Source of the DNA: Acholeplasmatales bacterium
GTDB lineage: Bacteria > Bacillota_I > Bacilli_A > Acholeplasmatales > Anaeroplasmataceae
Assembly (NCBI GenBank): GCA_016288855.1
Contig: JAEELJ010000028.1
Span: forward strand, 379 to 64,378
Length of the DNA: 64,000 nucleotides
Direction: 5' to 3'
Shown here piece by piece: positions 15,541 to 42,875 of this stretch. Both the position numbers and the translations under genes were made by a program. Position 1 is the first letter of the stretch, and the number at the start of each line of letters is the position of its first letter. The notes beneath the pieces are model-generated. The model had not been told where the DNA came from, made no database searches, and saw only the letters and a list, made by a program, of their open reading frames with translations.

Positions 15541-15572
15541 AAAACAAAAGAAAGTGACTCGATTGAGTCACT
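15541..15572 (-). terminator. intrinsic terminator ending surface-protein operon 2
   Basis: AGTGACTC-GATT-GAGTCACT hairpin overlapping the stop codon, followed on the minus strand by UUCUUUUGUUUU. Confidence 0.6.
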
Positions 15573-16350
15573 AATCTTGTTGCTCAGGCATATCACATGA
15601 TAATGAGATTCTATACTGAGGCAATATAAAATTTGTATAAGTTTGTGTAGCTTCTGGTGTTTCTCTTATTTGTAGCCATAAGTCTAGTCTACCTACAGAT
15701 AAACTACCAGTTGTTGCTTCTATAACCATATCTTCTTCTAATGGATTTAAATTAAAATCTTGATATGTATATACTCCATTATTTTCCTGACAGAAATTTG
15801 TCCATGATGTAAATGTTACATTGTTTGAAGTATCAACAATACCTATTCTTGCATCAAAATCCTTTAATGAATTTGGAACTGGGGTATAATCACTATCAGC
15901 ATCAAATCCAAATGTTAATGTATTATCTAAGCCAACATAATTTGTTACTTCAAATTTAAATGTATAAACCTTACTTGGACAAACATTCTCTAATGTAACT
16001 GTATTTAGTAGGTTTGCAGATGAGTCGTATGATAAAGCGTAACGTTGATCTACATAATTAAATGAATAATCTTCACTATGATACTTTTGCTGATAAGCTA
16101 CATAAGCTTCAGCCTCAGGATTATAATATTTATCTACATTAGCTAGGCTTTGCTTATCAGGTACACCATTAAAGTTAGTATCATTAGCTTTATATAATGT
16201 TACCATTGAGTCAATTTGTAAGATATCAAAGCTCATATCCTTAACTCTATCTTGGTTTATATACCATGCAGTAACTAAGCTTATCAAAGTAGTAAGGGTA
16301 ATAGCTAATGCTGAAAATTCCAATACTATTTTAATTATTCTCTTTTTCAT
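15571..16350 (-). CDS. TasA/camelysin-sized exported protein with a SipW-type-like leader (operon 2, gene 4)
   Basis: 259 aa. Leader MKKRIIKIVLEFSALAITLTTLISLVTA|WYINQDRV. Tightly packed behind 16382..17173. The fold assignment is inference only. Confidence 0.6.
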   Translation of the reverse strand: MKKRIIKIVLEFSALAITLTTLISLVTAWYINQDRVKDMSFDILQIDSMVTLYKANDTNFNGVPDKQSLANVDKYYNPEAEAYVAYQQKYHSEDYSFNYVDQRYALSYDSSANLLNTVTLENVCPSKVYTFKFEVTNYVGLDNTLTFGFDADSDYTPVPNSLKDFDARIGIVDTSNNVTFTSWTNFCQENNGVYTYQDFNLNPLEEDMVIEATTGSLSVGRLDLWLQIRETPEATQTYTNFILPQYRISLSCDMPEQQD

Positions 16351-16381
16351 ATTAAATTCCCCTTTCTACAATAAATTTTAA

Positions 16382-17173
16382 TTAGAACATTAAGTATACA
16401 CTACCAATTCTAAATCTCTTTCTAGATAATAGGTTACCATATGAAACAGTTGATTGACCTATTAATTGGTAATATTGAGTGAAGTCTTCACTTATTCTAA
16501 AAGTGTAATATAAAGCTTCGTAGCTATTTAGCCAAGTATGATGTAATAAATCAACTTCTACAGTTTCTGGATCATTTTGGCTAATATTATAAGAACTAAA
16601 CCAAGTAAAATCAGATGCAGGAGTGAAATTAGCTGGAGTTTCTCCTTCTCCATCTTTTAAAGACATACTCTTATATTTAAATGCACCTGTTACATAGTGA
16701 GTATAATCTACTCCATTGTAATCAACCTTAAATGAGTCAGCAATGATATTTTTTAATTTTAAATTATAATTATATCCATCACATTGACTATCCATATAAT
16801 ATCCTAGTGTAATATCTACATATTCACCTGGTAATAATTCTGTAATTGAGAAGTAAGTATCTTCTTCAAATGTAGTAATAGTTGTAATAGTACCTGTAGA
16901 TGCATCATAAATAACTTGCTTTGTAAGTAATAATGAACCATCACTTTGCTTAGTATAAGTATTTTCTTCTGTACTTCCACTTAAGCCATATCTTTTTGCT
17001 GTAACTGTATCCTTAAAATGTATACAATCCTCAGATGCAGTCATACCAGTTATTCCTGTTGCTTTTACAGTGTCATTTGCTGTATACCATGCAAAGATTA
17101 CGAAAACTAGTAAGAATAAGCATATTAACATAGATATTATACTTGATATTAAATTAAAACGTGTATTCTTCAT
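16382..17173 (-). CDS. TasA/camelysin-sized exported protein with a SipW-type-like leader (operon 2, gene 3)
   Basis: 263 aa. Leader ...LLVFVIFA|WYTANDTVKATGITG, nearly identical in motif to 42007..42735. Internal ITELLPGEYVDITLGYY resembles the TasA-family xxPGDxxxxxF strand. Confidence 0.6.
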   Translation of the reverse strand: MKNTRFNLISSIISMLICLFLLVFVIFAWYTANDTVKATGITGMTASEDCIHFKDTVTAKRYGLSGSTEENTYTKQSDGSLLLTKQVIYDASTGTITTITTFEEDTYFSITELLPGEYVDITLGYYMDSQCDGYNYNLKLKNIIADSFKVDYNGVDYTHYVTGAFKYKSMSLKDGEGETPANFTPASDFTWFSSYNISQNDPETVEVDLLHHTWLNSYEALYYTFRISEDFTQYYQLIGQSTVSYGNLLSRKRFRIGSVYLMF

Positions 17174-17196
17174 AGTTTTCTCCTTTCTTCACATTT

Positions 17197-20100
17197 TTAG
17201 TATCTATCGACATAGAATTTAACAGTTAATGTATATCCACTAAATGTATAAGTACAATAGAAATATGTTGCAGTATATTCTGTATATGTATTACCATACT
17301 TATCAGTTGTTTGGTAACCCCAAGTTAAAGTACCAGGTGTATTAATTAAACCAAAGTCTGAATAAGTCATATTTCTATAATTATAGTAAAGCTGTGTAAT
17401 AGAAACCTTCTTTGATAGCTTATTTTGATATACTATAGATTTTAATTTAGCATAATCATCATAGTTATCAGAATCCTCAAACATTACAGGAACTCCACTT
17501 GAAATCTTATTATATACAGTAATACCATCTTTAATTAAGTCATTATAAGTTTGGAAATTTGTAATACCATAAGAACCAACAATTGGATTATTTATAGTTT
17601 CTAAGTTTCCATATAAATATACTTCTTCTAGATTATCTAAATCTACTAAATCACTAAATGTTTGAATACTATTATTAGATATATCTAATGTCTTAATAGA
17701 ATCTATATCACAAATTGATGAAATATCTGTAATTCCACAGCCACTTAATTTTAAGTAAGTAACTGATGTTAACTGTGAAATACTTGTTAGTGTTGCACTT
17801 GATAATGTAACACCACTTAGGTTAACCTTAGTAATACTTGTTAAGTTACCGATTCCATAGAAATCTGAAACGTTAGATAATGTACTATCTGATGTAACAT
17901 CTAATGCAATATCAATTGATAACCATTTCTTTGGAATAAATGAAGATGATGTTACACTTGATGCAGCTAGTGTATCTCCATTTGGATTAAAATTATTATA
18001 AATCCAACTAAAGAAATATCTATCCTTAACTGCATTTGTTTGTGATGACGAAGTATTATAGAATAATCCACCACAAATATTAAATGTAGAACTTGTTAAT
18101 TCTGTTACATAAGTATGTCCATCTACTGAATAAGAATATAGATTCCAGTTAGCTGCAGGGCTAAACTTGTAGTTATATAATAACAACATTGGGATATCTA
18201 CTGTTGATGCGTTTTGAGCATTAATTCTAAATATGTATTTAGCATCTCCATATTCAGCAATTGTTTTAACAGTTAATCCATTATTAGTTAAATATGTGTC
18301 TAATAATGTAGTTAAAGAAGTTGTTGTATTACTAAATGTTACTCTTTCAGCACCATTGTAATATAAAATTACATTTAAGCATGAAGGAACACCTAATGCA
18401 TAAGTATAATAATTAAATTCTTCAGAGTTTGTATTTTTATGAGTTTCAAATACATTTGCAAAATCATAACAAATATAAGGGGCTCCTGTACCAAATGAGA
18501 ATGGCATTTCGAATTCATATTCTAAGTCTTCTTGTACCATTGGGTCATATCTATTATAGTATGGTAAGAATCCAGCTACAGTGTCTCCACTTTCTGCTAA
18601 ATAATCAACATACATATCAACATCAACTGATACTGCATCATTACCACTACCAAACGTGAATGTTGCAGTTAAATATGATGTTTTTGCAGGAGGTACTGAA
18701 CTATCTGATGCAGTTAATACATAATCTGAATATGTATAATAATCAGTAGCTTTAGAACCTTCTATAGGACCTTCCTTCAATGAATATGTTAAATTAGTAA
18801 TATTATATCTTGTAACATAGCTATAAGTAGTTGCATCTAAGTTACTACCTAGATCACTTAGCTTATATAGAGTCTTTGAACTACCGGTTGATGAATCATA
18901 GATAATTGCCCCACCATATAATTTGTTTAAAATTAATCTCGCAATTGTTTCATAATCTGAAACATATTGTGAATACATATTTAATACTAAATTAGTTGAA
19001 TTATTAATATTTACAACTAAATGGAAGCAATTATCATTTGGTTGTAGAATATATACATTACTACTTGGATGAGATGTAGTATTAACAGCTGTATTATTTA
19101 TATCTGTTAATTGATATGTAAATGAAATATTATCATCAAATGCGTATAATGGCAATTCTACACTATTAACAAATTCATAATAATTTGAAATAGAAATTTC
19201 TTCATTAACATTTAATGTAACATCTCTATAATATTCTTCTAGATAATCTAGAATTAATTGCTTAGCAACATTATTCTTAACTGTAGAATTACTTAAATTA
19301 ACAACATGTAATTTAAATTGACATGAATATGATGTATCCCAAGATTCATGTGATACTGTTGCAGTTAATGTTACATCTTCTGTAGTAGTAGGTAATGTAA
19401 CCTTACCATAATTCGAAATAATATTTTCATTACTTGATGTATAAGTAATATTTACATCAGTTGATAAATAATGCATTGGTAAATCTAAATCCTTATATAC
19501 AAATGAGCATAACTCATCTGTATTAGAATTAAAGATACAATTTGTTTTTGTTGTAATAAACTTTGATTGATTAATTACATATGATGAAACACTAACTTCT
19601 TCATAATTAGCTTTATTAACCTTTCTAGTTAAGTCAGAGCCAATTGAATCACTAACATAATATAATGCATTATATGCAGTATATTTAGGATCAATATTTA
19701 ATACTGTAACTGTGTTAGCTTCTATTGTTACTGTAGTGTTATTGTAATATGTAACATTAGATGTAACAAAACTTGCATTAGCTAAATCTACAACAATCTT
19801 ACCTAAGCTATTTGATCCTGTATTAATTATTCCACCATATATGCTGAAGCAACCAGCATATCCATGTCTAAAAGTTAATGTATTATCATTAAGATTTAAT
19901 GTTTTACCATTTAAATCTAAATGTACATCTGATGTTACCTCGATACTAGATTCTAATTCAATATTACTAGTCAATCTTAAAATCTTTCTTGCTTGTGCAT
20001 CAGAAACAATATTACTATCGTTATAAGCACTAGCTTTTGAATTCATAAATAAATCTTCAAAAGAGGCTATTTCAATGACATTTTCATCACTTATATCTGT

Positions 20101-20223
20101 TTGTGCTGTAGCAGTCTTATTAGATGTAGCATTTAAATATGCAAAAACAGATACACATGCTAAACATATTAACATGAATGATAAAGATATAAATATTATT
20201 ATTTTACTTCTTTTACTATTCAT
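17197..20223 (-). CDS. large surface protein with beta-helix-like N-region, Ig-like module and C-terminal leucine-rich repeats (operon 2, gene 2)
   Basis: 1008 aa. Leader ...CLACVSVFA|YLNATSNK. LRR block LTSITKVNLSGVTLSSATLTSISQLTSVTYLKLSGCGITDISSICDIDSIKTLDISNNSIQTFSDLVDLDNLEEVYLYGN. Module NITYTSSNENIISNYGKVTLPTTTEDVTLTATV. No LPXTG. Confidence 0.75.
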   Translation of the reverse strand: MNSKRSKIIIFISLSFMLICLACVSVFAYLNATSNKTATAQTDISDENVIEIASFEDLFMNSKASAYNDSNIVSDAQARKILRLTSNIELESSIEVTSDVHLDLNGKTLNLNDNTLTFRHGYAGCFSIYGGIINTGSNSLGKIVVDLANASFVTSNVTYYNNTTVTIEANTVTVLNIDPKYTAYNALYYVSDSIGSDLTRKVNKANYEEVSVSSYVINQSKFITTKTNCIFNSNTDELCSFVYKDLDLPMHYLSTDVNITYTSSNENIISNYGKVTLPTTTEDVTLTATVSHESWDTSYSCQFKLHVVNLSNSTVKNNVAKQLILDYLEEYYRDVTLNVNEEISISNYYEFVNSVELPLYAFDDNISFTYQLTDINNTAVNTTSHPSSNVYILQPNDNCFHLVVNINNSTNLVLNMYSQYVSDYETIARLILNKLYGGAIIYDSSTGSSKTLYKLSDLGSNLDATTYSYVTRYNITNLTYSLKEGPIEGSKATDYYTYSDYVLTASDSSVPPAKTSYLTATFTFGSGNDAVSVDVDMYVDYLAESGDTVAGFLPYYNRYDPMVQEDLEYEFEMPFSFGTGAPYICYDFANVFETHKNTNSEEFNYYTYALGVPSCLNVILYYNGAERVTFSNTTTSLTTLLDTYLTNNGLTVKTIAEYGDAKYIFRINAQNASTVDIPMLLLYNYKFSPAANWNLYSYSVDGHTYVTELTSSTFNICGGLFYNTSSSQTNAVKDRYFFSWIYNNFNPNGDTLAASSVTSSSFIPKKWLSIDIALDVTSDSTLSNVSDFYGIGNLTSITKVNLSGVTLSSATLTSISQLTSVTYLKLSGCGITDISSICDIDSIKTLDISNNSIQTFSDLVDLDNLEEVYLYGNLETINNPIVGSYGITNFQTYNDLIKDGITVYNKISSGVPVMFEDSDNYDDYAKLKSIVYQNKLSKKVSITQLYYNYRNMTYSDFGLINTPGTLTWGYQTTDKYGNTYTEYTATYFYCTYTFSGYTLTVKFYVDRY

Positions 20224-20249: not shown

Positions 20250-23200
20250 TTATTCGTATAATGAACCTACGAACTTCATCTTATAAATCTTCTTGTACTC
20301 TAATACTGTACCATCAGTTTGAACAGTACGTATTAATGCGGTAATTTGTACAGTAAATGTACCAGAATAACCTAAATAATCACCGGTTCTTTGAACTAAC
20401 TTATCGTTTGTTAAACTTGTATAAGTACTTTCACCATTAATTGTAATTCCCATATCGTTATATTTAACTAAGTTAACGATATTAGTCTTTTCATCTAATG
20501 TTACTTTATACCAGCCTGCATTAAAGAAACCGAAACCAGCTTGTGCGGTTGAACGTACTATATCTCCTACACTTAATTGACCAGTACCTAAAGCAATTAA
20601 GATATTATCTGATGTATCTTCAGTATATGCTTTTACTTCAACCCATTCAAATGCAGTATTTTTAGCATTCGGCATTATTCTATAAATGTAGCCAGGTCTT
20701 ACATAAATACCACTTGATATATATCTTGCTGTGCCTGAATATGCATAATATCTACCATAATATGAGCCATATAAATAATCTTTAAAATGGCTGTTTGCTT
20801 CAGTTAATATAGAATCCATGTTTGTTCCACCACTATCGGCCACAGATTCTGCATAATGTTCCCATTCAAGAACACCATCATTAACAGTCAAATTATAAGC
20901 ATGGTTTTTAGAATAAATTGTTTGAATATATAAAGGTGACCAAGAATATATATTATCTGTCACAGTTTCTCCTGTATACCTAAATATATATTCATATCCA
21001 CTAGATAAGCCATAATAGAATTCAACTTGTTTATTTAATAAATCAGTATTTGCTGAAGTTAAATCAGTCGTATATGTTGCATATGGTATTACAACTGTTG
21101 AAGATAATTCCCAATTAGATGTTAAATGTTCATATAAATAAGCCATATCAGAATAGCCTTCATCATTTATTGTATATTCAACATCATTATAAACATATGT
21201 GTATTCAGAATTAGTTCCTTCAGTATCAGCTGGAAATCTACTTCTTATATCACTTATCAAATAAGTTTGCGTTGAGTTAAGTGTATTTATAGTTATAGAT
21301 TTAATATTCAGTGGGTTAGAAAGATATACTTTATCACTACTTGATGTTTCATTATACCAAATATTTATTACGTAAATAATAGAATTAGATGAAGTATATT
21401 TTCTTTCAATACTATTATCAACATAATCATAACTAGAAAATACAGCAATGATCGTATTAGTCTTTAGAGTCACATTATTAATTATGGTATTTTCACCTGT
21501 ATAGAAATAATATTTGTAACTAGTCGTTCTTGTTTCTGAGACTATTGATTTAAGATCAGTATATTCTAAAATAGCACCTTCGATTTTATCTACTTCATAT
21601 CCTACCTTATAAGCTTCAATAGTATCAGTTGAATTATCCTTATAAGTTACTACAAAATTAGGATTAATTGTATAGTTAATAGTAGTACTTACGCCAGTAG
21701 ATACAGTCCATCTTCCTTTAGCATCTTTATTGCTATGATATTTCACATAAAAATCATCAGTGCATCGCAATCTAAATGTAGTGTTTTCATATAGTTGTAT
21801 ATAATAATAACCACTTGTATACTGCACAAGAGTATAAGAAAGTGCACTATTAATATTAGTTGTTACAGAAGGAATAATATCGTTTGCAATAGTATCTGAT
21901 TTGTTACCGATTAAATATAACTGATTGTTATAAACAAAACATAAATAATATCTTTCATTAAGATAAACATCCTCAGTTATAGTAGTATTAGCTTTATATG
22001 ATTTATTCAAAATATTTTTAACATTCTCTTCTGATAAAAAATACACTCTATTATATTGACCAGCCGTTCCTGTTGAAGTATCCTGAGTCAATCCTGGAAT
22101 ACCACTAAAACTTCTATATGATAAATATCTTTTTTTCGAACTATTATAATAATAATATTGTGCAGAAATTGTAATAGTTACACTAGTACTATTTTCAGTA
22201 TACCAAGTTACAGTTTCAAGATTAGTAGTTGTTCCGGCTTCCACTTCTTCATAAGAAGTCTCAGTTGTAGTTTTTACTTCGAAATCAGATACATCAACAT
22301 TTTCAAAACCTACTGATGGAAGACTTGTTGTAGTTGTTTTACTTGATAAGCCTAAATCATTAAAGACAATAGTTGAACCAGAGGCCCCAATTTTATATAT
22401 ATGTCCCTCTATAAAACTATATGTACCATTTTTATAACTATAGGTAAATGATTCTGAACAATAATAGAAAGGAGATACCATTTGATTCATTTCACTTATT
22501 GATGTAATTTCAGGATACTTACCAGGATTTGTTATTCTACCATATAATTCATTACCTTCATCAATTCTCCAATTGATTGTAGTAGTTGAACCATCTTCAT
22601 TATATATAACATTAGTCATATACATATATTTAGATATGAACTTATTGAAATCAGATAGATCTGCTAAATCAGATGCTCTACTTGAATCATTACTATATGT
22701 ATTTACACCATTTGCATTCTTATAATAAATAGTACATGTAGATGTTGCTATATTATCGATTGCAAATTCTTGGTATTCATATTCAACACCAATATTAGTA
22801 ATATTAACATAAGTATAATTACCTCTATTAACATTTACTAATTCATTTACACTATGAATACCTAAATTGTTAGATAAATCAAGATATGTTAATTTATCAT
22901 AATTCTTTATGTTAGTTAAATCAAAATTTGTATTAGTATGTGCAACATTTTGCATTACTAATCTAGAAATTTCTTTATTAACTAATGATGTTCTTGCAAC
23001 TAATGTTGATAAACCATTTTCACTTAAGAATGCAGCTAAGTTATCATTTCCATATATTTCTAAAGTACTTAAATTAGTAAAATATGATAATGCTGACTTT
23101 AAGCTATCAACATTTGTTACATATGGAATACCACTATTTAAAGATGTCTTAAATGTTGTAGTATTTTCACCATACTTATTTAATTCATATTTTTTACTTC

Positions 23201-26522: not shown

Positions 26523-26589
26523 ATGAAAGCACCTCCTTCTGATATTAATTTCAAAAATCGGATTAGTTAAAGCAACCTTATATTTCCAT

Positions 26590-26695
26590 AAAAAAAGCCA
26601 GTTGTCCTTTTGCAACTGGCTGTCTTTTTTGGAAATCCACCTAAAGACCCTATAGCTTTGCGTCATAAGATTGCTCTTACTTTGCCCATAAATAA
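26590..26695 (-). promoter_or_regulatory. c-di-GMP-I (GEMM-I) riboswitch with intrinsic terminator, leader of operon 2
   Basis: Minus-strand RNA: GGGCAAAG[GUAAGA-GCAA-UCUUAU]GACGCAAAGCUAUAGGGUCUUUAGGUGGAUUUCCAAAAAAGACAGCC. This is followed by AGCCAGUUG-N8-CAACUGGCU plus U7 (26590-26621). The GCAAA / GNRA-capped hairpin / GACGCAAAGC core is the GEMM-I signature. Confidence 0.8.
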
Positions 26696-26913
26696 AAGTA
26701 GTTTAATTGCAAAACAACTAATCCTAGAACGAAAAACTAAATTAACTTTAACCTTTACTAAGTTCAGTATAAACGAAAAACATTTAAAAGTCTAGTATTT
26801 TTTAATTAATTTTTAACTTTTTATGCATGTAAGTGTTAAAATTATCTATTTTATTCAAATTGTAAATATCTTTCTGATTTGAAGTATAATTCTTATTTTA
26901 TATTATTTTCAAA

Positions 26914-34100: not shown

Positions 34101-37100
34101 AAGTTAATAAATCGTTATTAGTATTAACAGTATATGAAGGATCAAAATTATAATAATCTGTTACATATGTACCAGTTTTATAATTCTTTAATAAGTATCT
34201 TGTACCATCTTGTTGAGCATTATTAATAATATAATCAGAAACCCATTGATATCTCGAGTCGCCTTTACTTGATTGTGTTGTACCAACGTCATTCCATAAG
34301 AATGCATAAGATTCTTTATTTGTTGCAGTTGTGTTAGATTTTGCAATTACATCATCAGTAAATGTCTTATTTGCAGAAATAAATACAGGAACATAAGCTC
34401 TTGTTGTGTTTGATATATTAGATGCACTATATATTTCTTTTCCCAAATAATCATCATAATTAGTTAGTAATGATGCAAACACCTTACCATTAGCCATATA
34501 TGGACCATAATAATATGTATTTGAATCATTTACACTATCTGGTGTATATAAGAATCTATTGTTTACTACTTCTGTATTAGAATATGTTATATTATCAGTA
34601 CCAGCACGGTATATACCATTTGGATTATTTTTACCATCAGTTGTACCTGATGGTGCATCAATTGACTGATATGTATTATTCCATTCAGTTGCTTTTGCAA
34701 TTAAAGATATATAAGAAATTGATGAAGTTGGGTCTTCATGACTACTAAATAGTCCACTACTATTCTTTAAATAGTTTTGGAAATTTGTATTATTCTTAAT
34801 GATATTCCATAATTCAGTATAATCATGAGTATATGATACTAATTCACCATTAATATATTGAGAGTCTGATGTTGAAGTATATTCATCAACAAGATTAGAT
34901 GAACTATATTCATTTTCAATTGATGCATCAATATCATATTTCTTAAATGCATTATTAATTGCATTTAAATAATAGCTATTGCTGCTGCTATTATATGCAA
35001 ATAAGTTAGCATATATAGTTAACGCAACATCAGTATGATTTGATAAATAGTTAATATACTTTAATGTGTTTTCAGCATCAGTTGTATCACTTAATAATTC
35101 TTGCGCAATTAATGCTAATGTTTCAGATGAATAATCAGCTAATAAAGTTTGGATTAATTCCATCTTCTTAACTAGATAATAATCACCAGTTTCATCATTA
35201 AATAATGGATCTAAGATGTCATTATTTGTATCATCAATTAAAGCTTCTAAATATGTAGTTAATACTTCTTCTAATTCTTCTGATGATGCAGATGCTAATA
35301 CTGTTCTAATCTTAGTTTGTACAGCAGCATAATCAGATGTATCACCAGATACAACCTTAGCTAATAATTCATCATATAATAATTTTTGTAATAATGTATA
35401 AGCATCAGTTTGTTCTGTCTCATAATAAGACATTATTGTATCAATGATAGTTGATCTAATTGATGATGTAATATCGCTAATACATTCATCATCAAATAAA
35501 ATATATTCTAAGATTTCTTTTAAATCTGATGAAGTATATTCAGTTGTATTTCCATCATCAGCACTTAAAATTTCAGTTAAGAAATTAACTAATAATGTAT
35601 CATCAATGCTTTCATACCATGTTGAAGATGTAAATGAAGCTTCAACAAGTGTTGTTGACTTAGTAAGTCCTGAATATCCATCACTTACGAAAACAGACAT
35701 TGTTGCAACATCTCTTGCAAGTTGTTCTGCAGCATTAACATATGCTATATTCTTCCAACCAATCTTTTCTAGTAATAATTCATTTACCTTATCGAATCTT
35801 ACGAATTGGAAGAAGTCAGCAATATATGCATCTGTTACATATGTATCATAATCAACAACTGTTAAATCACCATTGATTGCTCTTCTGAATATAAACTTTT
35901 CACTAAATACACCAATATTACCAGCTTGTGTATCTGTAATAGTTGATAAAGGAGCATATTTTACAGATGAACCACCAAATGTATCAAGTGATCCATTTAC
36001 TGTAATAAATGTTGATGCATCAATACCATCTGCAGGTGTATTAAGTTGGTTTAAAGCTTGACAAATGAATGCACCATTAAAGAAGTTAATAACATATCTA
36101 ATTGAGATATTAGAACTATCTCTACTTGCAAAATTTATAAATCCAAACATTGAGCCTAGATAATAATAATTTTGTAATGCTGCATCATATGAACCTGTTG
36201 ATAAATATGTTAAATTAACAACTTCATTATAGTTAACATGATATAGTGTAGCACCAGTATAAGAATATTTTACTAATACATAAACTGTACCATAATTAAT
36301 AGTATTTGCTAAATAGAAAGTTGTATCACTAAAGTCACCTAAATTAAATGAGCCAATAAGTGAACCAACTACTTCTGAGCCATATATATTACCATAATTT
36401 AATACGTTAACAATGTTACAAATACCATATGCCATAATACCACCTGTTTGGCAATGACATGCAGCAACGCTTGATCTTGTAACATTTGCAGAACCATTAA
36501 ATCCAATTAATGTACCATAGTTAATTGTGAATGCAATTACATTATTAATGTTTCCTGCTGCACCATAATTTGTTGCAACAATACCACCTACATTAACTTC
36601 AACAGCATATGAATTTGATGTATTGATAACCTGTATTGTACCATTGTTAGCAGAGTCTCTAATTTGAGCATAATTACCAGTCATTTTGCAAGCAATACCT
36701 GCTGCAAAATATTCATCATTTGCAGCTTTTGCAAATATATCTAATTGAATATCACCTAAGTTAAATGCGTTAGATATAATACCTGAATTTGAATATGCAA
36801 TACCTGATGCATAAACACTTCCAACTAAATTAGTAGTTGTAGTTTGTGAAACAGCTTGTGGAGCATTATTAGTATTTGTATAGTAAAGATATTGATCTTT
36901 ATTATAATCACTAGATGTTACAGTAATTTTACCATTATTAATAACATCATTTAATGAACCAACAAGTGAGCTATCAAATGTTGCATTTAAAGGATTTTGT
37001 TCAGTTGCATTTATTACTGCTAAATTATTACGACAAATACCTGAAACATAAATATTGATATTCATATCACTTGATGAAGAATCAGTTAATGTAATATCTC

Positions 37101-39921
37101 CACCATTATAAATAGCTTGTGCATATGAACCTAATGATAATTCATCAAATACACCATTTACATATAAATTATGTTCAGTAGATGAAGTTTTATTTAATGT
37201 GAATGATAAAGTCCCTTCATTTCTTACATCATTATAATTGATATAAGAACCATTAACAGTACCTGAATAAATACCATCAAATGTTAATGCAGTACTCATT
37301 GTGAAATTAATGCTTCTTAAGTTATATACTGCAGCTAAAGTAACAATATTATTACCTGATGTATCAGAACCATTATTTACATTAATAACACCAGCATAAT
37401 GTCCAATAACACTAATATCTTGCTCTTGAGCATTAATTGATAATAATTTTCTTGCTGTACCACTATAGATATAGTTGTTATCTAGGTTATAAACACTAGA
37501 AAGCTTTGAATCGAAGCCATTACCTGAACAAATATTAATACCACTTGTTAAGTAACCATTTAATCCTAAAATATTAGATGCACTAGCATATTTAACAGAA
37601 ACATTTGCTCTATTAGTCATTGCTGATGCATAGAATAAAATGTTATTTGCCTTATCTACGAATTGAGATGGTGTAACATTACCAGATGCAGTATCTGATG
37701 TTTGAATATCAGCATTTTCAATACCAGCAACCATTGTTAATGTTGCAGTACTATTACCATAAACAGAAATTTCACCTTGGTTTGTAAAATTATTTACTTC
37801 TGCTGTTTCTGATGTTTCACCAGCTTCACCTAAATGTCTACCTAAAATACCAGCAACATAAAGCTTAGTATATGTAGGAACTACAGTTGATGAACCAATT
37901 GAAATTGAGCCTAAATTTTCAAGTTTTGTTGCAAGTCTTGTATAACCAGCACCAATAACACCACCTACTGCGTAAGTAGCACTTGAACCTAAATTTAAAG
38001 AAATATTTACTGCATTTAAGACAGTATCAATATCTCCTAAAGAATCTTCAATGTAACCAACTAAACCACCTACTGCAACACCAGCCATGTAGCCTGATGA
38101 AGTAGAATATGAAGAATCAGCAACAAGATTAATTGAACCTGTTGATACACAGTTTGTAATCTTACCTTCACCGCCAAATACACCACAAATACCACCTAAA
38201 TAGTATTCACCTAGTGTAGATGAAGTTGTATTAGTTGCTTCAATATATGTATTAACATTAGTGATTGTTGAACCTTCAATGTAACCTGCAAGAACACCTA
38301 TTGCTTTTGCATTTGTTGCTTCTTCTATATCATCTAAATTAATTGTAGATACAACATTTAAATTAGTAACATCACCAGTCAAATAACTGAATAAGCCATA
38401 TGCATTAAGACCAGTTGTTACAACCTTCTTACTATCATTTAAGATATCAGCATTATAAATAGTTGGATATTTAGTAATACCATTATCAACCATTGTAACT
38501 GAACCTGATGATATTTGTTGTCCTTCAAATGAAGAACCAATACCATAATTATATGCATATGCAGTACCAGGAATTCCTTCAAGGTTAATATCGTTTGTGA
38601 TTTCATAGTTTACTTTTGCAGATGCGAAGAATGCATTGTTATTCATTAATTCATACATGAATAAGAAATCTTTAACATTTGTAATTTCAATAGTTGCACT
38701 TGCAATATTTGTATTACCTTCTGCGTCTATACCTGTAACAATTGTTGCTTCATTAACAAACTTTCTTCTTACAGGAGTTTCATAAGTAAAATAATAATTA
38801 AGAACTGTTCTAGTATTAGATTGAACACTCCAATTTGAATTTAACGCGAAAGCTTCATTTAATTCATCTAAAGACTTAACCATAATACCTGGATAAGATG
38901 TACCATTCTTTGTCTTAGCACCTAAGTCATCAGAATAAACAATTGTATATGCTCCACCAGCAACAAAGCTAGAGAACACAAAATCTATAGAAGTATTATA
39001 GAAATAAGTTGTTGTAATAGAACCTGAGTTCTTTAATGTAATATCTGCAAATTCGGCATAATCTGTAACAGTATAGTTAAATACTGAATTTGTTGCATAA
39101 TATGAATCTGAAATTGAACCAGTTGAAGCATTTTCAACCACAAAGCCAGAAATACGATATCCACCTGCCGCAGTAATACCACATTCATCAATTAGCTTTG
39201 TTCCTAATTGATTAACGTATACACCTGAAATTGTGCCCTTATTAAGACCACAAATATTTGCAACACCATAATCAGCCATACCAGAAATCATGTAAGCTAA
39301 TGTAATAGTTGGATTAACTAAACCAAAATTCTTAATTTCACCATTATTTTCAGCAAACATAGCGAAATATTTCATTGCACTATATTGAGAGGCAACAGTT
39401 GATGAACTAATAACTACGAATTCAAGATTATAAATATCATATCCATTACCATCAAAAGAACCTGTAAATGAACTTTCAGAAGTTGATGACCAACCAATTG
39501 GAATAAAATCATGAGCTGTATAATCATCAAAATCAATATTGCATAATAATAAATAATCATAAGCTAAGAATTTAGAATATGAATAACATGCTGCAGAAAA
39601 TTTATATAATTCTTCTGCTGATGCAATAGTAATAGTCATATCGCTATAATTAGCTGTTGATGCATTACTAAAAGCAGTTGTCATTGATACTCTATTAGTT
39701 TCTTTTGACTGTGTCTCATCAGTTGTTTTTATTGGTGTCTGACTACCAGCGTAAAATGACTTATAATCAATAAATGAAGTCTTAATATCACTTACATTTC
39801 CAGATAATTTATAGTTAATAAATAAAGCCAAAAATACAGCCATAAAAGCTGTAGTTAAGGCAAGACATATTGAAGTTATAATTGCTCTTTTATTAGAGCG
39901 ATTCTTAATATTATTTTTCAT
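28129..39921 (-). CDS. giant surface protein (about 3930 aa) with GLUG-motif/beta-helix modules (operon 1, gene 4)
   Basis: The probable start is ATG at 39921 (MKNNIKNRSNKR...), with GGAG 9 nt upstream; the track starts at 39930. Leader ...AFMAVFLALFINYKLSGN. Two GLUG-type modules (IASAEELYKF..DIDF..PIGW..FTGSFDGNGYDIYNL..FAENNGEIKNFGL; GLFSYLTGDVTNLNV, GVLAGYIEGSTITNV, GGICGVFGGEGKITNC, GGLVGYIEDSLGDI). No LPXTG or other wall anchor. Confidence 0.8.
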   Translation of the reverse strand: MKNNIKNRSNKRAIITSICLALTTAFMAVFLALFINYKLSGNVSDIKTSFIDYKSFYAGSQTPIKTTDETQSKETNRVSMTTAFSNASTANYSDMTITIASAEELYKFSAACYSYSKFLAYDYLLLCNIDFDDYTAHDFIPIGWSSTSESSFTGSFDGNGYDIYNLEFVVISSSTVASQYSAMKYFAMFAENNGEIKNFGLVNPTITLAYMISGMADYGVANICGLNKGTISGVYVNQLGTKLIDECGITAAGGYRISGFVVENASTGSISDSYYATNSVFNYTVTDYAEFADITLKNSGSITTTYFYNTSIDFVFSSFVAGGAYTIVYSDDLGAKTKNGTSYPGIMVKSLDELNEAFALNSNWSVQSNTRTVLNYYFTYETPVRRKFVNEATIVTGIDAEGNTNIASATIEITNVKDFLFMYELMNNNAFFASAKVNYEITNDINLEGIPGTAYAYNYGIGSSFEGQQISSGSVTMVDNGITKYPTIYNADILNDSKKVVTTGLNAYGLFSYLTGDVTNLNVVSTINLDDIEEATNAKAIGVLAGYIEGSTITNVNTYIEATNTTSSTLGEYYLGGICGVFGGEGKITNCVSTGSINLVADSSYSTSSGYMAGVAVGGLVGYIEDSLGDIDTVLNAVNISLNLGSSATYAVGGVIGAGYTRLATKLENLGSISIGSSTVVPTYTKLYVAGILGRHLGEAGETSETAEVNNFTNQGEISVYGNSTATLTMVAGIENADIQTSDTASGNVTPSQFVDKANNILFYASAMTNRANVSVKYASASNILGLNGYLTSGINICSGNGFDSKLSSVYNLDNNYIYSGTARKLLSINAQEQDISVIGHYAGVINVNNGSDTSGNNIVTLAAVYNLRSINFTMSTALTFDGIYSGTVNGSYINYNDVRNEGTLSFTLNKTSSTEHNLYVNGVFDELSLGSYAQAIYNGGDITLTDSSSSDMNINIYVSGICRNNLAVINATEQNPLNATFDSSLVGSLNDVINNGKITVTSSDYNKDQYLYYTNTNNAPQAVSQTTTTNLVGSVYASGIAYSNSGIISNAFNLGDIQLDIFAKAANDEYFAAGIACKMTGNYAQIRDSANNGTIQVINTSNSYAVEVNVGGIVATNYGAAGNINNVIAFTINYGTLIGFNGSANVTRSSVAACHCQTGGIMAYGICNIVNVLNYGNIYGSEVVGSLIGSFNLGDFSDTTFYLANTINYGTVYVLVKYSYTGATLYHVNYNEVVNLTYLSTGSYDAALQNYYYLGSMFGFINFASRDSSNISIRYVINFFNGAFICQALNQLNTPADGIDASTFITVNGSLDTFGGSSVKYAPLSTITDTQAGNIGVFSEKFIFRRAINGDLTVVDYDTYVTDAYIADFFQFVRFDKVNELLLEKIGWKNIAYVNAAEQLARDVATMSVFVSDGYSGLTKSTTLVEASFTSSTWYESIDDTLLVNFLTEILSADDGNTTEYTSSDLKEILEYILFDDECISDITSSIRSTIIDTIMSYYETEQTDAYTLLQKLLYDELLAKVVSGDTSDYAAVQTKIRTVLASASSEELEEVLTTYLEALIDDTNNDILDPLFNDETGDYYLVKKMELIQTLLADYSSETLALIAQELLSDTTDAENTLKYINYLSNHTDVALTIYANLFAYNSSSNSYYLNAINNAFKKYDIDASIENEYSSSNLVDEYTSTSDSQYINGELVSYTHDYTELWNIIKNNTNFQNYLKNSSGLFSSHEDPTSSISYISLIAKATEWNNTYQSIDAPSGTTDGKNNPNGIYRAGTDNITYSNTEVVNNRFLYTPDSVNDSNTYYYGPYMANGKVFASLLTNYDDYLGKEIYSASNISNTTRAYVPVFISANKTFTDDVIAKSNTTATNKESYAFLWNDVGTTQSSKGDSRYQWVSDYIINNAQQDGTRYLLKNYKTGTYVTDYYNFDPSYTVNTNNDLLTSNNNLRVSSSTYQRVTTGGTELGLVTTNNQCRAGLSSNGSYTHPLKDYYFRGYATSSIISGIWYVLSVWKNGNTVVGCYLISKTDDSAKQDGYGGVQTTQYTYYQMDDLVALDGVRTKGLSASTKPQDSDEIGIISSIMTKVLSTTDGQKAVLEALGVYASTTGFTSSQGASLRFLSSALRGTTFASNAVINVYTKQDNIALSNEYYYYYSAYYNTTLKEYLDSLIEDVEYTDLENLSMLGATDVELFKKILLLTLANDKYDDDDGTNTVTSTDITYFIYKYATYLREHDPDITDEEIAEKFAGVTSTDLTAFAALSDLDWDDFITTIGGDADASQEDGVGSYTDIKALYEALGSTDGATIAKGYAYPFKIADDTLLSPSASKINMTLSAGTKQVTACYTYEASSTGNNIGYYIGSDVKVYNKANKANFDTFYYPNGDGTPYTLPTADHAAPSEDIVSYLSDTQTDGDTTYRNGDYLIRLTGDSQFDANNEGGLVAVENACVGTWSGTLLVPNRCIWVAPIKSGTFKFVLSNIENTDKMGFRLYKLTRSTPGDYSTYFTNYSQALECNMQLQPGKSYYYEIDITDEDIEAGYEYAISSGDGYMPYITYIDIGASGTDNTKVKYPNLKPIEDNYNSYYSNLSEYASYLASNLIDATTYSPKITTTSITVSTPTIILVKADDGYTVTVGGTTTYDVDGVSTSISSVKKNTNGNYRAFYLSGGTYTITASDAVISEILQVNANGAITYNTGATSIYYDSDTTDASSGTLIFKGTNYTNLSSFNLDLDNANKILETLLVVYPTMIDSNDNYYFFDDSTIEEFTSTQLKEIIKALAKADYSSTTSVLGRLITNLPTKYYDNLLLSITDDEVIANMIKKIIEICDDNDYSESEDLIIAAYLGDDLIECSDNNQLTSSILYTVLSTYASSAAKSTTTGDTTAGFYQFIAGDTTINATKFTQFLEHLGVSANLEGYGIFALASSHGIKNGTFIPDNLTLTSMDAAYDTTATDSNNASIIKLLDASINSSDVTTTGSISTSWRDNTGNSSVATDTTQSYDTSDSSSVNYAFRIEMKQLKLSISTTIFELDLTDSTAGTIYASSSTIDVDNGTITYYVLETDLATIMANNNISIKNIDYAETATYVTNKSNTSTINLTGGFTNSKGNYQVKDAITVTAEDTSVYTAYDIILVGIPVSFTVTSDTSSLTYNGGTVTLTITCPNIPDNFDFKSFFTITNDSTSYKEGKGWTYNASTRNNGIVTNGSATLVIDINANLPGGTEELTISVFSQTRTVEVEKALNTEAKITKLTFEDNDLTTSGAYVSGKTSSIKFGRAYDYTELTNYKSENFYLADFEISPNASVVITATYANIANGDGRIRYSVKFVVTSESGSSETYYHYLDEMEYFDSTIANVFEEGVALQESDLYTEDFTYDSDSYLGQYSSLTYSSVDTFVAVKFNRGEEPQYRIKYILSNFYTLGDVTYETTDDTLNNGAAVSLTYAGLTVSVTESNEPGVYKFDYIYKSTGTWSGDTEYVRQYLFPTLFIIKGYSTDALLNRLTFLDQSIVIGNTASVMKTNTATSTSILAEASSEAVDGHETTYSDIFSLTSRDIEIKNKTIKYSTAAKSTSITDYFALGTVSDSDLSYYAPTFGIEEHAQIYQYTTLAKLTAYGADVQTESDAEVLSNHDTMYLYVPFTNGTTTIVYMVEVSSTGNWTNVYTTAFDGTNGATTKVGQFGTGITAYTAQNLAENNNYTSITINGYHVASETGSISNQALYMDYVGSPVNNHFWYVSYVVFSEAALHGEDDLGNQRYYHISIVDATNTIYFEVELYAPVDFAEVISNQELYMTISENIYSDTVKTATRQISGYLVVQKDDEDNIITDTDTNSHTYGLALYKLKIKLQTLPKGYFYFYIDLPDGYIVTVTTDMENQLDKSYDKIGSSIEEGAFLPFTSIITKTIALEFIVKEGTGDNATAWAVTTSDIYTRQAEYVGVTPNDEETSGE

Positions 39922-39938
39922 AATGGTCATCTCCAGTC

Positions 39939-41201
39939 TTAAATACTACCCAATGTGCTAGGATCGACTCCCCATAATTCTAACGCACGGTTTGCTTGCA
40001 CAAGCTCAACTGTGAATGATACTTCTACATCAACATATTCAGTATATACTGATGTTTTTGAATTTGAGTAGAAATAAGCTTGATTTACATTAAATGAATA
40101 ACTTTGTGATGCAAAGTCACCATTTGAATCCCTTGTAGGTAAAATCATTGTTTTAAGATATGCTGTATTCTCATTAGTATTGTAATACCAACCAGTATCA
40201 GAAATTGCAAATGGCGAATTACCAGCAATTTGATCCTTAATAGTATATGTTTCCTTTTGTGCAGAAGCATACTTTCTTGTTAAAATCCACGCATCCTTGA
40301 TATGGATTCTAACATATACTGCAATCTCATTAGTAAATGTAAACGCAAAGCCTAGTTGATTTAAGTAAATGTTACTATCATCTTGCTTCTTTTCTGTTGC
40401 GCTACATGTTATTGTTTCACTTGAATCAGTTGTACCAGCACTCAAAGTTTTATCAATTACAACAAAACCTAAGCCATCTGTATCAACAACAACAAAGCAA
40501 TCATCGTTATCTGTTGATGCTTCATCAATTCCATCTTCACTAAATGAAGTAATTGTTACAGTAATAAGTTCAGCTGAATTCTTGCTAAAAGTAACAATCT
40601 TAGAATTAGTAGATGAAATTTCATATGTAATTTCATCACCAGCTGGATTTGCAATTGTACCAATTGATATAACACCTGAGTGTGTTGATGTTGCAACATA
40701 ATATGTGCTTGCTGGAATAGTGCTTCCTACTGAAACAGTAGATGTTGCTGTATATCCAGAATTTGAATCTTTAGTATAATAAGATGTACTACTATCAAAT
40801 GATGTATCTGATGTTAAATAATAACCACCATTCTTATCTTCATAATAAGTATTAGATGGAATTGTACCACCTACTGTAACAATAGCCTTAGAATAAGTAC
40901 CTGCTACATAATATGTTTTACTTGCTTGGAAAACTGTATCTGTTGCAAGTGAATAAGTTGTAGTTGTATTTAAAATTACATCTTCTACATCAATTAATGT
41001 ATCAATTCTCATCTTTGAATTAGATGAGCTACTATAGTCAATAAAGTGCTTACTATCAACCTTAACTTGACCTACTTCAATATCATTTGTAACCTTTTTT
41101 GTAAATGTATAAGCTGCAAATACTATTGATATCATTGAGATAAGAACCATCAATGATGTAGTTAATATTAAAATTTTAGAAATTCTTTTATTACTCTTCA
41201 T
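39939..41201 (-). CDS. exported protein (420 aa) with a SipW-type-like leader and short TDTxF..KTYY repeats (operon 1, gene 3)
   Basis: Start at 41201 (MKSNKRISKILILTTSLMVLISMISIVFA|AYTFTKKV) with GAGGG upstream; the tracked TTG start at 41219 is less likely. The C-terminal VSFTVELVQANRA resembles the TasA-family ..ATQ.N.. end motif. Confidence 0.65.
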   Translation of the reverse strand: MKSNKRISKILILTTSLMVLISMISIVFAAYTFTKKVTNDIEVGQVKVDSKHFIDYSSSSNSKMRIDTLIDVEDVILNTTTTYSLATDTVFQASKTYYVAGTYSKAIVTVGGTIPSNTYYEDKNGGYYLTSDTSFDSSTSYYTKDSNSGYTATSTVSVGSTIPASTYYVATSTHSGVISIGTIANPAGDEITYEISSTNSKIVTFSKNSAELITVTITSFSEDGIDEASTDNDDCFVVVDTDGLGFVVIDKTLSAGTTDSSETITCSATEKKQDDSNIYLNQLGFAFTFTNEIAVYVRIHIKDAWILTRKYASAQKETYTIKDQIAGNSPFAISDTGWYYNTNENTAYLKTMILPTRDSNGDFASQSYSFNVNQAYFYSNSKTSVYTEYVDVEVSFTVELVQANRALELWGVDPSTLGSI

Positions 41202-41228: not shown

Positions 41229-41996
41229 TTATTCTGTAGTTGTAGTTACTTCTTCTGATGAAGTTGCTATTGCAGATAAGATTAATGAAAAAGTATAACT
41301 TGCTTTATCATCATATGATCCTAAGAATTCATTTGATGATGCATCATATGGTTGAATACCATATATATAAACATAGAATGTGGCCTTGCCACCTTCATTA
41401 GTTGCTTCATTTAATGCACTAACATTTTCTACTGTTGATGTTGTCATTAAATCATTGCCTAAGAAATCTGCAACTGAACCTTCTTCGTCACTACTATCTA
41501 GTTCTTCTTGTGATACTGCTGTTGCAACATAAGGATCTCTTAAATAATAAGTCTTAGTTGCACTAAATTTTGTATCAGTTGTTAAAGAATATTCTGTACC
41601 AGATAATTCATAATATTGTCCTTCTGGAACAGTTTCATTTGCTGCAACAGAAGCTTCACTATAAGTAAATGTTGTCCCCTGCTTAACAGTTATATCAACA
41701 TTAGCCTTACTTCTATTTTCAATAGAAATTTCCATCATTACAGCCATAGTTGAAAAATATTTACCTTCACCTACATTATCAAGGTCAAAGAAAACTAAAT
41801 TATCAACATCATATGTTTCAGGGTTAACTGTTGTATCATCATCAAAGGTATATGTTAATACAATACCATTTGTAACAACATCAACAGGCTCTTCCTGATC
41901 AGTTCTAACATACCAACCAAAAATAAATCCACTTAATACTACAAGTAGTACTAAACTTAGTGCTAGGTTAGCAATAATAAATATCTTATTCTTCAT
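41229..41996 (-). CDS. TasA/camelysin-sized exported protein with a SipW-type-like leader (operon 1, gene 2)
   Basis: 255 aa. Leader MKNKIFIIANLALSLVLLVVLSGFIFG|WYVRTDQEEPV. Lies 10 nt downstream of gene 1. Confidence 0.6.
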   Translation of the reverse strand: MKNKIFIIANLALSLVLLVVLSGFIFGWYVRTDQEEPVDVVTNGIVLTYTFDDDTTVNPETYDVDNLVFFDLDNVGEGKYFSTMAVMMEISIENRSKANVDITVKQGTTFTYSEASVAANETVPEGQYYELSGTEYSLTTDTKFSATKTYYLRDPYVATAVSQEELDSSDEEGSVADFLGNDLMTTSTVENVSALNEATNEGGKATFYVYIYGIQPYDASSNEFLGSYDDKASYTFSLILSAIATSSEEVTTTTE

Positions 41997-42006
41997 AATT
42001 GCCCTC

Positions 42007-42735
42007 CTAGTTACTAATGAATAATGACTTAATGCTTAAGCCTTGGAATTGATAATAACTATCTATAATATCATCACCTGTAGATACAAATGATAACGCA
42101 AAATAATCAATTGATGTAGTAGTTAAAACTGTGTAATCAAATATTGCAGTTTCAAGTGATTGAGCAACATCACTACCAATACCCTTAGGTACATCATTTG
42201 TAATTATAGGAGATGTATATAATTTAAATACATCTTCAATTTTATAATCATCTAATTCAACTGAATATTCACCAGAATCTTCAGTAATTGTATATAAAGT
42301 TTTTTCCTCGTTATCTTCTGTAACAGTAATATCAGAAGTTTGAGACTGATACATAACTACATTGTTATATAATACAGAATAATTTGTACTATAAGTTGCA
42401 GTAACAATTTCTTGATTTAATACAGATGAAATACCTGTAAAATGAGCACTATATTCACTATTAGCAGTTAATCCGTCTGCAACAAGCTTAAAATATATTA
42501 CATCATCAGGCCAAGCTTCAACAGAAAGCTCTCCATCAGATCTAATCCATTGCTTAGATACCTTATCCCAGTAGTATAATTTAAATTCAGCTGTATTGTC
42601 TTCTGTTTTACCAATAATTCCAGTTGCCTTTACAGAATCATTTGATATATACCATGCCATCAATACAGTTACAAGAAGGAATCCAGTAACAAATAAAGAT
42701 GCTAATGATAATATTAAATTTAAATGCTTCTTCAT
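42007..42735 (-). CDS. TasA/camelysin-sized exported protein with a SipW-type-like leader (operon 1, gene 1)
   Basis: Start at 42735 (MKKHLNLILSLASLFVTGFLLVTVLMA|WYISNDSVKATGIIG) with AGGAGG upstream. The tracked 42786 start would overlap the leader terminator. Confidence 0.6.
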   Translation of the reverse strand: MKKHLNLILSLASLFVTGFLLVTVLMAWYISNDSVKATGIIGKTEDNTAEFKLYYWDKVSKQWIRSDGELSVEAWPDDVIYFKLVADGLTANSEYSAHFTGISSVLNQEIVTATYSTNYSVLYNNVVMYQSQTSDITVTEDNEEKTLYTITEDSGEYSVELDDYKIEDVFKLYTSPIITNDVPKGIGSDVAQSLETAIFDYTVLTTTSIDYFALSFVSTGDDIIDSYYQFQGLSIKSLFISN

Positions 42736-42784
42736 AATTCCTCCTAAAATAAATGTAATACCTAAAGGAAGTTTTTTGGGCAAC

Positions 42785-42875
42785 AAAAAAACCAGTCCTT
42801 CATAATAGCAACTGGCTGTCTCATTAAGACCCTATAGCTTTGCGTCACAGGATCACTCCTGCTTTGCCTAAAACA
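42785..42875 (-). promoter_or_regulatory. c-di-GMP-I (GEMM-I) riboswitch with terminator-like hairpin, leader of operon 1
   Basis: Minus-strand RNA: AGGCAAAG[CAGGA-GUGA-UCCUG]UGACGCAAAGCUAUAGGGUCUUAAUGAGACAGCCAGUUGCUAUUAUGAAGGACUGG plus U7. It shares GACGCAAAGCUAUAGGGUCUU and GACAGCCAGUUGC exactly with the copy at 26590-26695. Confidence 0.75.

Follow-up and report, generated by a model that had tools for sequence, protein, structure and literature searches.

The 64-kb stretch of contig JAEELJ010000028.1 analyzed here (the window; G+C content, 27.9%) contains two minus-strand units of four genes, A and B. Very probably these are operons of a wall-less lineage that are controlled by cyclic di-GMP (c-di-GMP) riboswitches and encode a conserved module of four exported, adhesin-type proteins. 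The architecture of the module is less certain. The reading that we favor, and to which we give about an even chance, is a c-di-GMP-induced adhesive surface assembly, a hetero-complex of four proteins that are joined to each other and anchored in the membrane through a common N-terminal cassette. The two-unit block occupies 27.3 kb, 43% of the window, and housekeeping and defense genes are found in the rest of the window.

Two four-gene units behind c-di-GMP-I riboswitches

Searches with Rfam covariance models gave two matches in the window, both to the c-di-GMP-I aptamer (RF01051) and both above its gathering score of 35. Each aptamer opens a leader that also contains a terminator; four genes follow, with gaps of 10, 27, and 8 nucleotides (nt) in unit A and of 26, 23, and 31 nt in unit B, and a strong terminator closes the unit. 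The features of unit A are as follows (aa, amino acids; AF2, AlphaFold 2; LRR, leucine-rich repeat; Ig, immunoglobulin).

42804..42878, minus strand: c-di-GMP-I (GEMM-I) aptamer of unit A; RF01051, 56.5 bits, E = 2.3e-8, full model 1-87
about 42785..42817, minus strand: leader terminator of unit A, AGCCAGU(U)-loop-(G)ACUGGUU-U6; read from the sequence and present in the ligand-free minimum-energy fold
42007..42735, minus strand: A1, 242 aa, small; leader ...VLMAWYISNDSVKATGIIG / ...VLMAWYISNDSVKATG; AGGAGG ribosome-binding site upstream
41229..41996, minus strand: A2, 255 aa, small; leader ...FIFGWYVRTDQEE / ...FIFGWYVRTDQ
39939..41201, minus strand: A3, 420 aa, mid-size; leader ...IVFAAYTFTKKVTNDIEVG
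28129..39930, minus strand: A4, 3933 aa, giant; leader ...VFLALFINYKLSG; a single N-terminal hydrophobic helix
28083..28121, minus strand: end terminator of unit A, strong; 13-bp stem, 4-nt loop, T-run

Unit B has the features listed next.

26608..26696, minus strand: c-di-GMP-I aptamer of unit B; RF01051, 61.3 bits, E = 1.5e-9, model 1-87
26589..26621, minus strand: leader terminator of unit B, AGCCAGUUG-CAAAAGGA-CAACUGGCU plus U7; from the terminator scan and the fold
20250..26522, minus strand: B1, 2090 aa, giant; leader ...VGVYALITSTSSRGNIDIS / ...GVYALITSTSSRG; aBig_2 (atrophied Ig), 35.2 bits against a cut-off of 27
17197..20223, minus strand: B2, 1008 aa; leader ...VSVFAYLNATSNK / ...SVFAYLNATSNK; aBig_2, 34 bits, and LRR_4, 35.2 bits (cut-off for both, 27)
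16382..17173, minus strand: B3, 263 aa, small; leader ...VIFAWYTANDTVKATGITG / ...VIFAWYTANDTVKATG, then a predicted β-sandwich (AF2)
15571..16350, minus strand: B4, 259 aa, small; leader ...LVTAWYINQDRVKDMSFDILQIDS / ...LVTAWYINQDRVKDMSF, then a predicted jelly-roll-like β-sandwich (AF2)
15543..15572, minus strand: end terminator of unit B, strong; 8-bp stem, T-rich tail

These results bear out the initial annotation, which had described one four-gene plan with the gene order inverted between the units, a c-di-GMP-I riboswitch with a leader terminator in front of each unit, and a strong terminator behind it; the terminator scan recovered the closing terminators, at 28121-28092 and 15572-15553, and the leader hairpin of unit B, at 26621-26596, and the plan is conserved in relatives. 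The leader terminator of unit A is absent from the simple terminator scan because its loop of 12 to 14 nt exceeds the limit of that scan. The mechanically called open reading frame (ORF) of B1 (2138 aa) extends into the aptamer; the real start is at 26522 and has an AGGAGG ribosome-binding site.

In both leaders, the 5' arm of the terminator (AGCCAGUUG in unit B and AGCCAGU in unit A) lies inside the 3' strand of the second aptamer helix in the Rfam alignment. The ligand-free minimum-energy folds of both leaders contain the terminator, formed from aptamer nucleotides, and the aptamer is disrupted. Both leaders thus have a defining feature of a c-di-GMP-I riboswitch, an expression platform in competition with the aptamer, and the same overlapping design of terminator and aptamer occurs in the leader of a related contig (L001). 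Because one stretch of RNA serves as the 5' arm of the terminator and as the 3' strand of the aptamer helix, we infer that both leaders are ON switches, a direction that is a prediction from sequence. Without ligand, the terminator would form and transcription would stop; with c-di-GMP, the aptamer would keep the shared strand and RNA polymerase would read through.

Scans of the eight proteins with Pfam (E ≤ 0.1) and NCBIfam recognized only aBig_2 (B1 and B2) and LRR_4 (B2). PDB sequences were searched with the profiles of the B3, B4, and A3 families and with A4 and B1 themselves, and no match was significant. A1 and A2 gave no Pfam or NCBIfam match. The middle of A3 is rich in T, S, and Y and contains KTYY motifs, and the C-terminal domain is conserved; none of the 79 homologues of A3, one of which is from Anaeroplasma bactoclasticum (EI71_01514), has a Pfam domain, and its family profile found nothing significant among PDB sequences. 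A4 and B1 are both rich in T, S, N, and Y, and internal repeats were looked for in each and not found. A4 matched nothing in Pfam, NCBIfam, or the PDB sequences, and B1 had no match among PDB sequences. Proteins of 3700 to 4600 aa stand at the A4 position in five relatives (L004, L016, L017, L019, and L020), and B1 has orthologues of 1830 to 2090 aa in four (L001, L004, L013, and L015). The LRR region of B2, at residues about 780 to 880, matched a bacterial Roco ("Rab family") LRR protein (5il7) with an E value of 9.7e-19, as well as designed LRR proteins and internalins from an E value of 6e-14 (4fmz); residues 782 to 873 are internalin-like, with E values of 1e-10 to 1e-7 against InlA and InlB. 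The large proteins had been described earlier as GLUG, LRR, and Ig-like giants. The LRR of B2 and the atrophied Ig domains of B1 and B2 stand, but the GLUG assignment was not confirmed, and A4 is without any Pfam match.

As a separate observation, a Y/T-rich motif (Y.LT.DT.F...KTYY, then GTYY) is common to A2 residues 134 to 156 and A3 residues 81 to 103. It is repeated inside A3 and is also present in some LRR_5 (BspA-type) proteins matched by A3 (P0313 and P0314).

The same modules, usually with a riboswitch, were found on at least 10 other contigs. The contigs of relatives are numbered L001 to L020, and their neighborhoods were read within 10-kb flanks. The unit B gene set is present in the same order in L001, L004-L006, L013/L014, and L015, with the riboswitch in L001, L004-L006, L013, and L015; the unit A gene set is present in the same order in L004-L006, L016, L017, L019, and L020, with the riboswitch in all of these but L019. 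Gene order is kept even where B3 identity has fallen to ∼28% (L013 and L015). An aptamer above the RF01051 threshold lies upstream of homologous modules in 9 other loci. Wherever upstream DNA is present, the module is preceded by an aptamer, L019 excepted. Because the plan recurs with riboswitches in many unrelated contigs, it is far beyond chance. The two units are not always conserved together: in L004-L006, unit A follows immediately after unit B, with no Abi gene between them, whereas in several other relatives a unit stands alone within the 10-kb flanks. The units are separable modules that occur as twins only sometimes.

A third kind of operon lies behind a c-di-GMP-I aptamer in Acholeplasmatales metagenome-assembled genomes (MAGs) (L009, 3499-9599; L010, 6042-9809; and L008). 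It encodes a 251-aa membrane protein and proteins of 438, 496, 313, and 394 aa, the four of which have ...TTFAW[YFV]... leaders. The 313-aa protein has a 20-residue FAWYTANDTVKATGITG stretch in common with B3 and A1, and nothing else.

The common N-terminal cassette and the small proteins

Each of the eight proteins has one hydrophobic segment, at its N terminus, and no C-terminal anchor. The segment belongs to a cassette that consists of a K/R-rich start, a hydrophobic helix of 20 to 23 residues ending in a small residue followed by W/Y/A and Y/F, and a conserved segment of 10 to 20 residues. In all families, the W/Y/A position is preceded without exception by A, G, S, or T, and V, I, or L predominates at position -3. 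The post-helix segment is conserved separately for each position in the module, and the ectodomains beyond it are β-rich and otherwise unrelated.

Profile-profile comparison of the families with hhalign showed that only the N-terminal cassette can be aligned between them. The A1 and B3 families align over their first 48 residues at 50% identity (probability, 98.9; E = 1e-17), A2 and B4 over their first 40 residues (probability, 93.6), and B3 and B4 over 33 residues (probability, 94.7), while the alignment of A3 with B3 or B4 covers the leader alone, with a probability of about 56%. A1 is thus the counterpart of B3, and A2 that of B4; as far as the alignments indicate, the units resemble one plan in permuted order. 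Invariant residues are W29 and N33 in the B3 family; L14, T17, L20, L21, W28, Y29, and N32 in the A1 family; and G44 in the A3 family; the B4 family has the conserved run F41-I43-L44-Q45-I46-D47-S48. The B3 profile also recruits dozens of proteins of 250 to 430 aa that match in residues 1 to 50 only. Because the other exported proteins of the window have lipoprotein boxes or an ordinary short signal peptide, the cassette constitutes a distinct leader class. That all eight products carry one leader type had been claimed from the outset, and the alignments confirm it, together with the conserved segment that follows the leader. The cassette is common to at least five otherwise unrelated protein families and is a candidate for a new sorting or assembly signal.

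No C-terminal hydrophobic segment and no wall anchor were found in any of the eight proteins, in agreement with the initial annotation, which had recognized no wall anchor in them and neither a sortase nor a SipW-type signal peptidase in the window; neither a sortase nor an S26 peptidase was found among the window ORFs. A reading based on sortase and LPXTG was considered and rejected, as none of the eight proteins has the C-terminal hydrophobic segment and no sortase was found among the window ORFs.

The small proteins had also been called TasA-like, but membership of the TasA family is not supported. Peptidase_M73 (PF12389) had no match in the eight proteins at an E value of ≤0.1 and none in 130 relatives of B3, and TIGR04088, the model of SipW-cognate signals, had none in the eight proteins and none in distant relatives even at an E value of 10. 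TasA, CalY, and AbpA were likewise absent from the PDB sequence matches of the B3, B4, and A3 profiles at E values up to 10. B3 has 30 close homologues, and its profile reaches 190 clusters at 50% identity; a Pfam scan of the 130 remote relatives left the family unannotated, with one DUF11 protein as an outlier. B4 has 50 homologues, none with a Pfam domain and one of them named Acholeplasmatales bacterium.

Structure comparison was made with AF2 monomer models of B3 and B4 and with Foldseek against the PDB. The B3 model (predicted local distance difference test score [pLDDT], 84.8; predicted template modeling score [pTM], 0.74) has a helix at residues 2 to 32, a conserved but low-confidence segment at residues 33 to 47 (pLDDT of <50), and then a β-sandwich. 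The B4 model (pLDDT, 87.2; pTM, 0.76) has a helix at residues 2 to 38, followed by a β-sandwich. The best PDB matches of B3 were lectin and adhesin domains, with an E value of 0.018, and TasA and AbpA were outside its top 50. B4 best matched jelly-roll capsid proteins, such as VP2 of the birnavirus infectious bursal disease virus (IBDV), with an E value of 3e-4 and a template modeling (TM) score of at most 0.25; the archaeal TasA homologue AbpA (7ueg) came at rank 26 (E = 0.012; probability, 0.66; TM score, 0.24 to 0.32), and TasA was outside the top 50. The β-sandwich or jelly-roll fold of B3 and B4 thus holds at the level of the models, and the one TasA-type protein among the top fold matches, AbpA with B4, is a weak match.

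The search for a processing enzyme covered the window and the related loci with an S26 peptidase motif; a further peptidase, that of L017, was found by translation instead. The window yielded no S26 signal peptidase, and neither did the 10-kb surroundings in L001, L004, L013, L015, L016, L019, and L020. A signal peptidase I of the SipW/archaeal type, with a TIGR02228 score of 56 bits (cut-off, 51.85), is encoded 7 kb from a leader-type operon in L009/L011 and 5 kb from unit A in L017. In all three contigs, its gene is directly 3' of that for a DUF2357 protein of ∼870 aa (L009, 11133-17540; L011, 1050-8685; L017, 1-3043). The DUF2357 gene of L009 and L011 is preceded by genes for an AAA_5 protein and for a 468-aa membrane protein with faint similarity to signal peptidase I, and in L011, a GGDEF gene comes next after the peptidase. 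The SipW-type peptidase, which sits in a defense-like, or possibly secretion-related, cluster, may be the general signal peptidase of the lineage. Leaders of distant relatives, for example ...TATYAWFTNGD and ...SSAYAFFTSD, look similar to the signals of TasA and CalY.

Models for the assembly of the module

Homologues of the module proteins come from Acholeplasmatales bacterium MAGs, an Anaeroplasmataceae bacterium MAG, and Anaeroplasma bactoclasticum, and one related contig encodes a protein identical to an A. bactoclasticum protein; the samples of the relatives include goat omasum and Hadza gut. Mollicutes such as the Anaeroplasmataceae and Acholeplasmatales have no cell wall. The source bacterium is probably wall-less and of the Anaeroplasma type, judging from these homologues, and a wall-less lineage is the simplest reason for the missing LPXTG, SLH, and choline-binding anchors. 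No GGDEF or EAL gene was found among the window ORFs. GGDEF genes are present in two contigs of relatives (L011 and L020), and 14 GGDEF/EAL proteins are known from A. laidlawii (PMC2408644); c-di-GMP signaling exists in the order.

In the membrane-anchored complex that we favor, Sec would insert the proteins with the N terminus inside, and the cassettes would gather the four subunits at the membrane, where the helix of at least some of them would be kept as an anchor. The giant and LRR proteins, in which adhesin-type domains (LRR and aBig_2) are present, would be the adhesive parts, and the small β-sandwich and jelly-roll proteins would form a membrane-proximal base or scaffold. The outcome would be adhesion or aggregation at high c-di-GMP. 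We prefer an anchored complex because a wall-less cell needs an anchor, because the helix is conserved in sequence, because the four partners are co-inherited, and because most loci have no linked dedicated peptidase.

Several observations weigh against this arrangement. Contact between the subunits is something that we infer, and the wall-less state is deduced from the source names of homologues at 37 to 56% identity. The combination of A, G, S, or T before W/Y with V, I, or L at -3 would suit a signal peptidase I site as well, and cleavage there would take the anchor away; the post-helix segment of B3, with its pLDDT of <50, would suit a strand donated to another subunit. In L019, from an Anaeroplasmataceae MAG, unit A lies directly 3' of housekeeping genes and has no detectable c-di-GMP aptamer even at an E value of ≤1 (8416-8646). 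The class I c-di-GMP riboswitches tested in Clostridioides difficile are all OFF switches, and ON switches there are of class II, whereas both riboswitches described here are of class I and are predicted to be ON (PMC6200980).

The model of the initial annotation, a donor-strand fiber of the TasA/AbpA kind, we consider unlikely but still a serious contender. A SipW-type peptidase encoded elsewhere would cleave the leader after the small residue, and the conserved new N terminus (WY..N..a.atGI.G.T and similar) would insert as a β-strand into the next subunit; the small proteins would make up the fiber, and the mid-size and giant proteins would nucleate it, cap it, or ride on it. The small residue at -1 and the prevalence of V, I, or L at -3 in all families are consistent with such processing, as is a post-leader segment that is conserved among otherwise unrelated proteins and disordered in the B3 monomer model. 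B4 is jelly-roll-like, with AbpA among its weak matches (E = 0.012; probability, 0.66), a SipW-type peptidase lies 5 to 7 kb from leader-type operons in L009/L011 and L017, and the leaders TATYAWFTNGD and SSAYAFFTSD of distant relatives recall those of TasA and CalY. An N-terminal strand is common to TasA and TapA, and a role as tip adhesin has been proposed for AbpB (PMC9674648 and PMC9245690). However, neither Peptidase_M73 nor TIGR04088 matched the window proteins, the 130 relatives, or the distant relatives; the three family profiles, searched to an E value of 10, retrieved no TasA, CalY, or AbpA sequence from the PDB; the B3 model has no TasA-like fold match, and TasA is outside the B4 top 50. 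Seven related loci, like the window, have no signal peptidase within 10 kb. The sequence of the helix is conserved, which is unusual for a discarded peptide, and a fully cleaved fiber would have no hold on a wall-less cell. A related proposal is that wall-less bacteria use the cassette as a signal to assemble a new kind of surface filament. The archaeal-type peptidase would process the cassette, and the new N terminus or a retained helix would link small scaffolds and giant adhesins into a c-di-GMP-induced fiber. We consider this rather unlikely; if true, it would be a pilus-like system without sortase, usher, type IV machinery, or cell wall.

It is likewise improbable, in our estimate, that the products, at the surface or secreted, share no more than their regulation and form no joint structure, with the leader as the lineage's variant of a Sec signal or signal anchor and the proteins as separate adhesins or variable surface antigens. 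The unrelated ectodomains of the families and the relatives in which a unit is found alone agree with this, and single adhesin genes under riboswitch control are well known in C. difficile (PMC6200980). Against it stand the same four partners in the same order down to ∼28% identity, a cassette unlike the other signal peptides of the window and found, in the data examined, only in operons behind c-di-GMP aptamers, and the position-specific conservation after the helix, in which A1 is like B3 and A2 is like B4. The families combine a conserved helix at the N terminus with globular domains that vary, which is the hallmark of pilins; the AF2 models are lollipop shaped, with a helix of 31 to 37 residues followed by a β-sandwich. 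A filament of the type IV or archaeal pilin kind, in which the N-terminal helices would pack as a core decorated by β-domains, including those of the giants, nevertheless seems to us very improbable. The lone match of the B3 profile among PDB sequences (residues 14 to 55) is to the N terminus of an archaeal type IV pilin (6w8u_A), in the stretch ...IAIAVGWYLYTT...QQTGLTATKA... (...AVGWY...TGLTA...), but its E value of 3.3 is not significant. There is no class III signal, as the last residue of the n-regions is N, K, R, or H rather than G or A and E5 is missing, and no gene for a prepilin peptidase, assembly ATPase, or platform protein was found in the window or the related loci. We know of no precedent for pilins of 2000 to 3900 aa. 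Identification of the proteins as type IV pilins was rejected on the defining motifs, the class III signal being absent.

Neighboring genes and known systems

One further gene, which the initial annotation does not mention, lies between the units.

26914..27942, minus strand: Abi_2 (abortive-infection-like) gene; Pfam PF07751, E = 1.5e-36; it has its own signals and is outside the system

Given that it is missing at the same junction in L004-L006, this gene looks like an insertion. Defense- or toxin-type genes flank the units at 14010-15449 (minus strand), 45594-46574 (plus strand), and 49705-50673 (minus strand) and encode a Schlafen AlbA_2 plus HATPase_c_4 protein, an ORF6N/Rha-like protein, and a HipA_C kinase. 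In L017, a fragment of a group II intron domain (5717-5818; RF02001, 32.2 bits, barely over the threshold) lies between defense genes upstream of unit A. At 52454-57166 (minus strand), the window contains a 1570-aa ORF that has neither a Pfam match nor an N-terminal hydrophobic leader and overlaps the start of the next minus-strand gene, for a mechanosensitive channel, by 11 nt. Three lipoprotein genes (59823, 61058, and 5176) and a gene for a Lipase_3 protein are near it.

Several known systems resemble the module in part. The Mycoplasma mobile gliding proteins Gli123, Gli349, and Gli521 are encoded by tandem genes and are giant, non-repetitive surface proteins with single transmembrane segments that form one machine. 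They share with the units a wall-less cell and an operon of very large non-repetitive surface proteins; unlike here, they have no riboswitch and no common cassette, they have no sequence relation to the proteins described here, and they serve gliding, which nothing suggests in the present case. The match of B2 residues about 780 to 880 to the internalin LRR recalls Listeria InlA and InlB, but the LRR makes up only ∼10% of B2, and anchoring and context differ.

The TapA-SipW-TasA system of Bacillus subtilis and the bundling pili AbpA/AbpB of archaea likewise combine small β-rich secreted proteins with a larger partner through a common N-terminal motif (PMC9674648 and PMC9245690). In those systems, too, aromatics come after a small residue at the end of the leader; an archaeal-type peptidase is nearby in two of our relatives, and B4 is jelly-roll-like. 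However, the proteins of the units have no detectable sequence homology or significant fold homology to TasA, CalY, or AbpA, and the units differ from TapA-SipW-TasA in having no peptidase in the operon, giant partners of 2000 to 3900 aa, a wall-less host, and a riboswitch instead of SinR.

Closest in regulation is C. difficile, a low-GC bacterium in which c-di-GMP riboswitches control adhesins and pili (CD2831, CD3246, and pilA1; PMC6200980), likewise through an aptamer and a terminator in the 5' leader of surface adhesion genes. In C. difficile, the genes so controlled encode sortase/LPXTG proteins or type IV pilins, whereas the products described here belong to unannotated families with an N-terminal cassette in a wall-less lineage. 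That c-di-GMP riboswitches precede adhesins and pili is a known theme. What appears to be undescribed in Pfam, NCBIfam, and the literature searched is the set of cargo families, their common cassette, the non-repetitive giants that accompany them, and the host, a mollicute. The initial annotation knew of no description of this combination, and none was found: no Pfam or NCBIfam family covers it, and the literature searched on riboswitches with SipW/TasA, Mollicutes, or Anaeroplasma gave no description.

c-di-GMP riboswitches that turn adhesins on are known mainly from walled Firmicutes, where the proteins are recognizable; here the cargo is unannotated. In the small genomes of Anaeroplasma-type bacteria of the rumen and the human gut, the module fills much of the coding capacity. 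Experiments are feasible because Anaeroplasma bactoclasticum has been cultured and carries a unit A homologue, and the module offers a testable handle on the surface attachment of wall-less gut bacteria and on their use of c-di-GMP.

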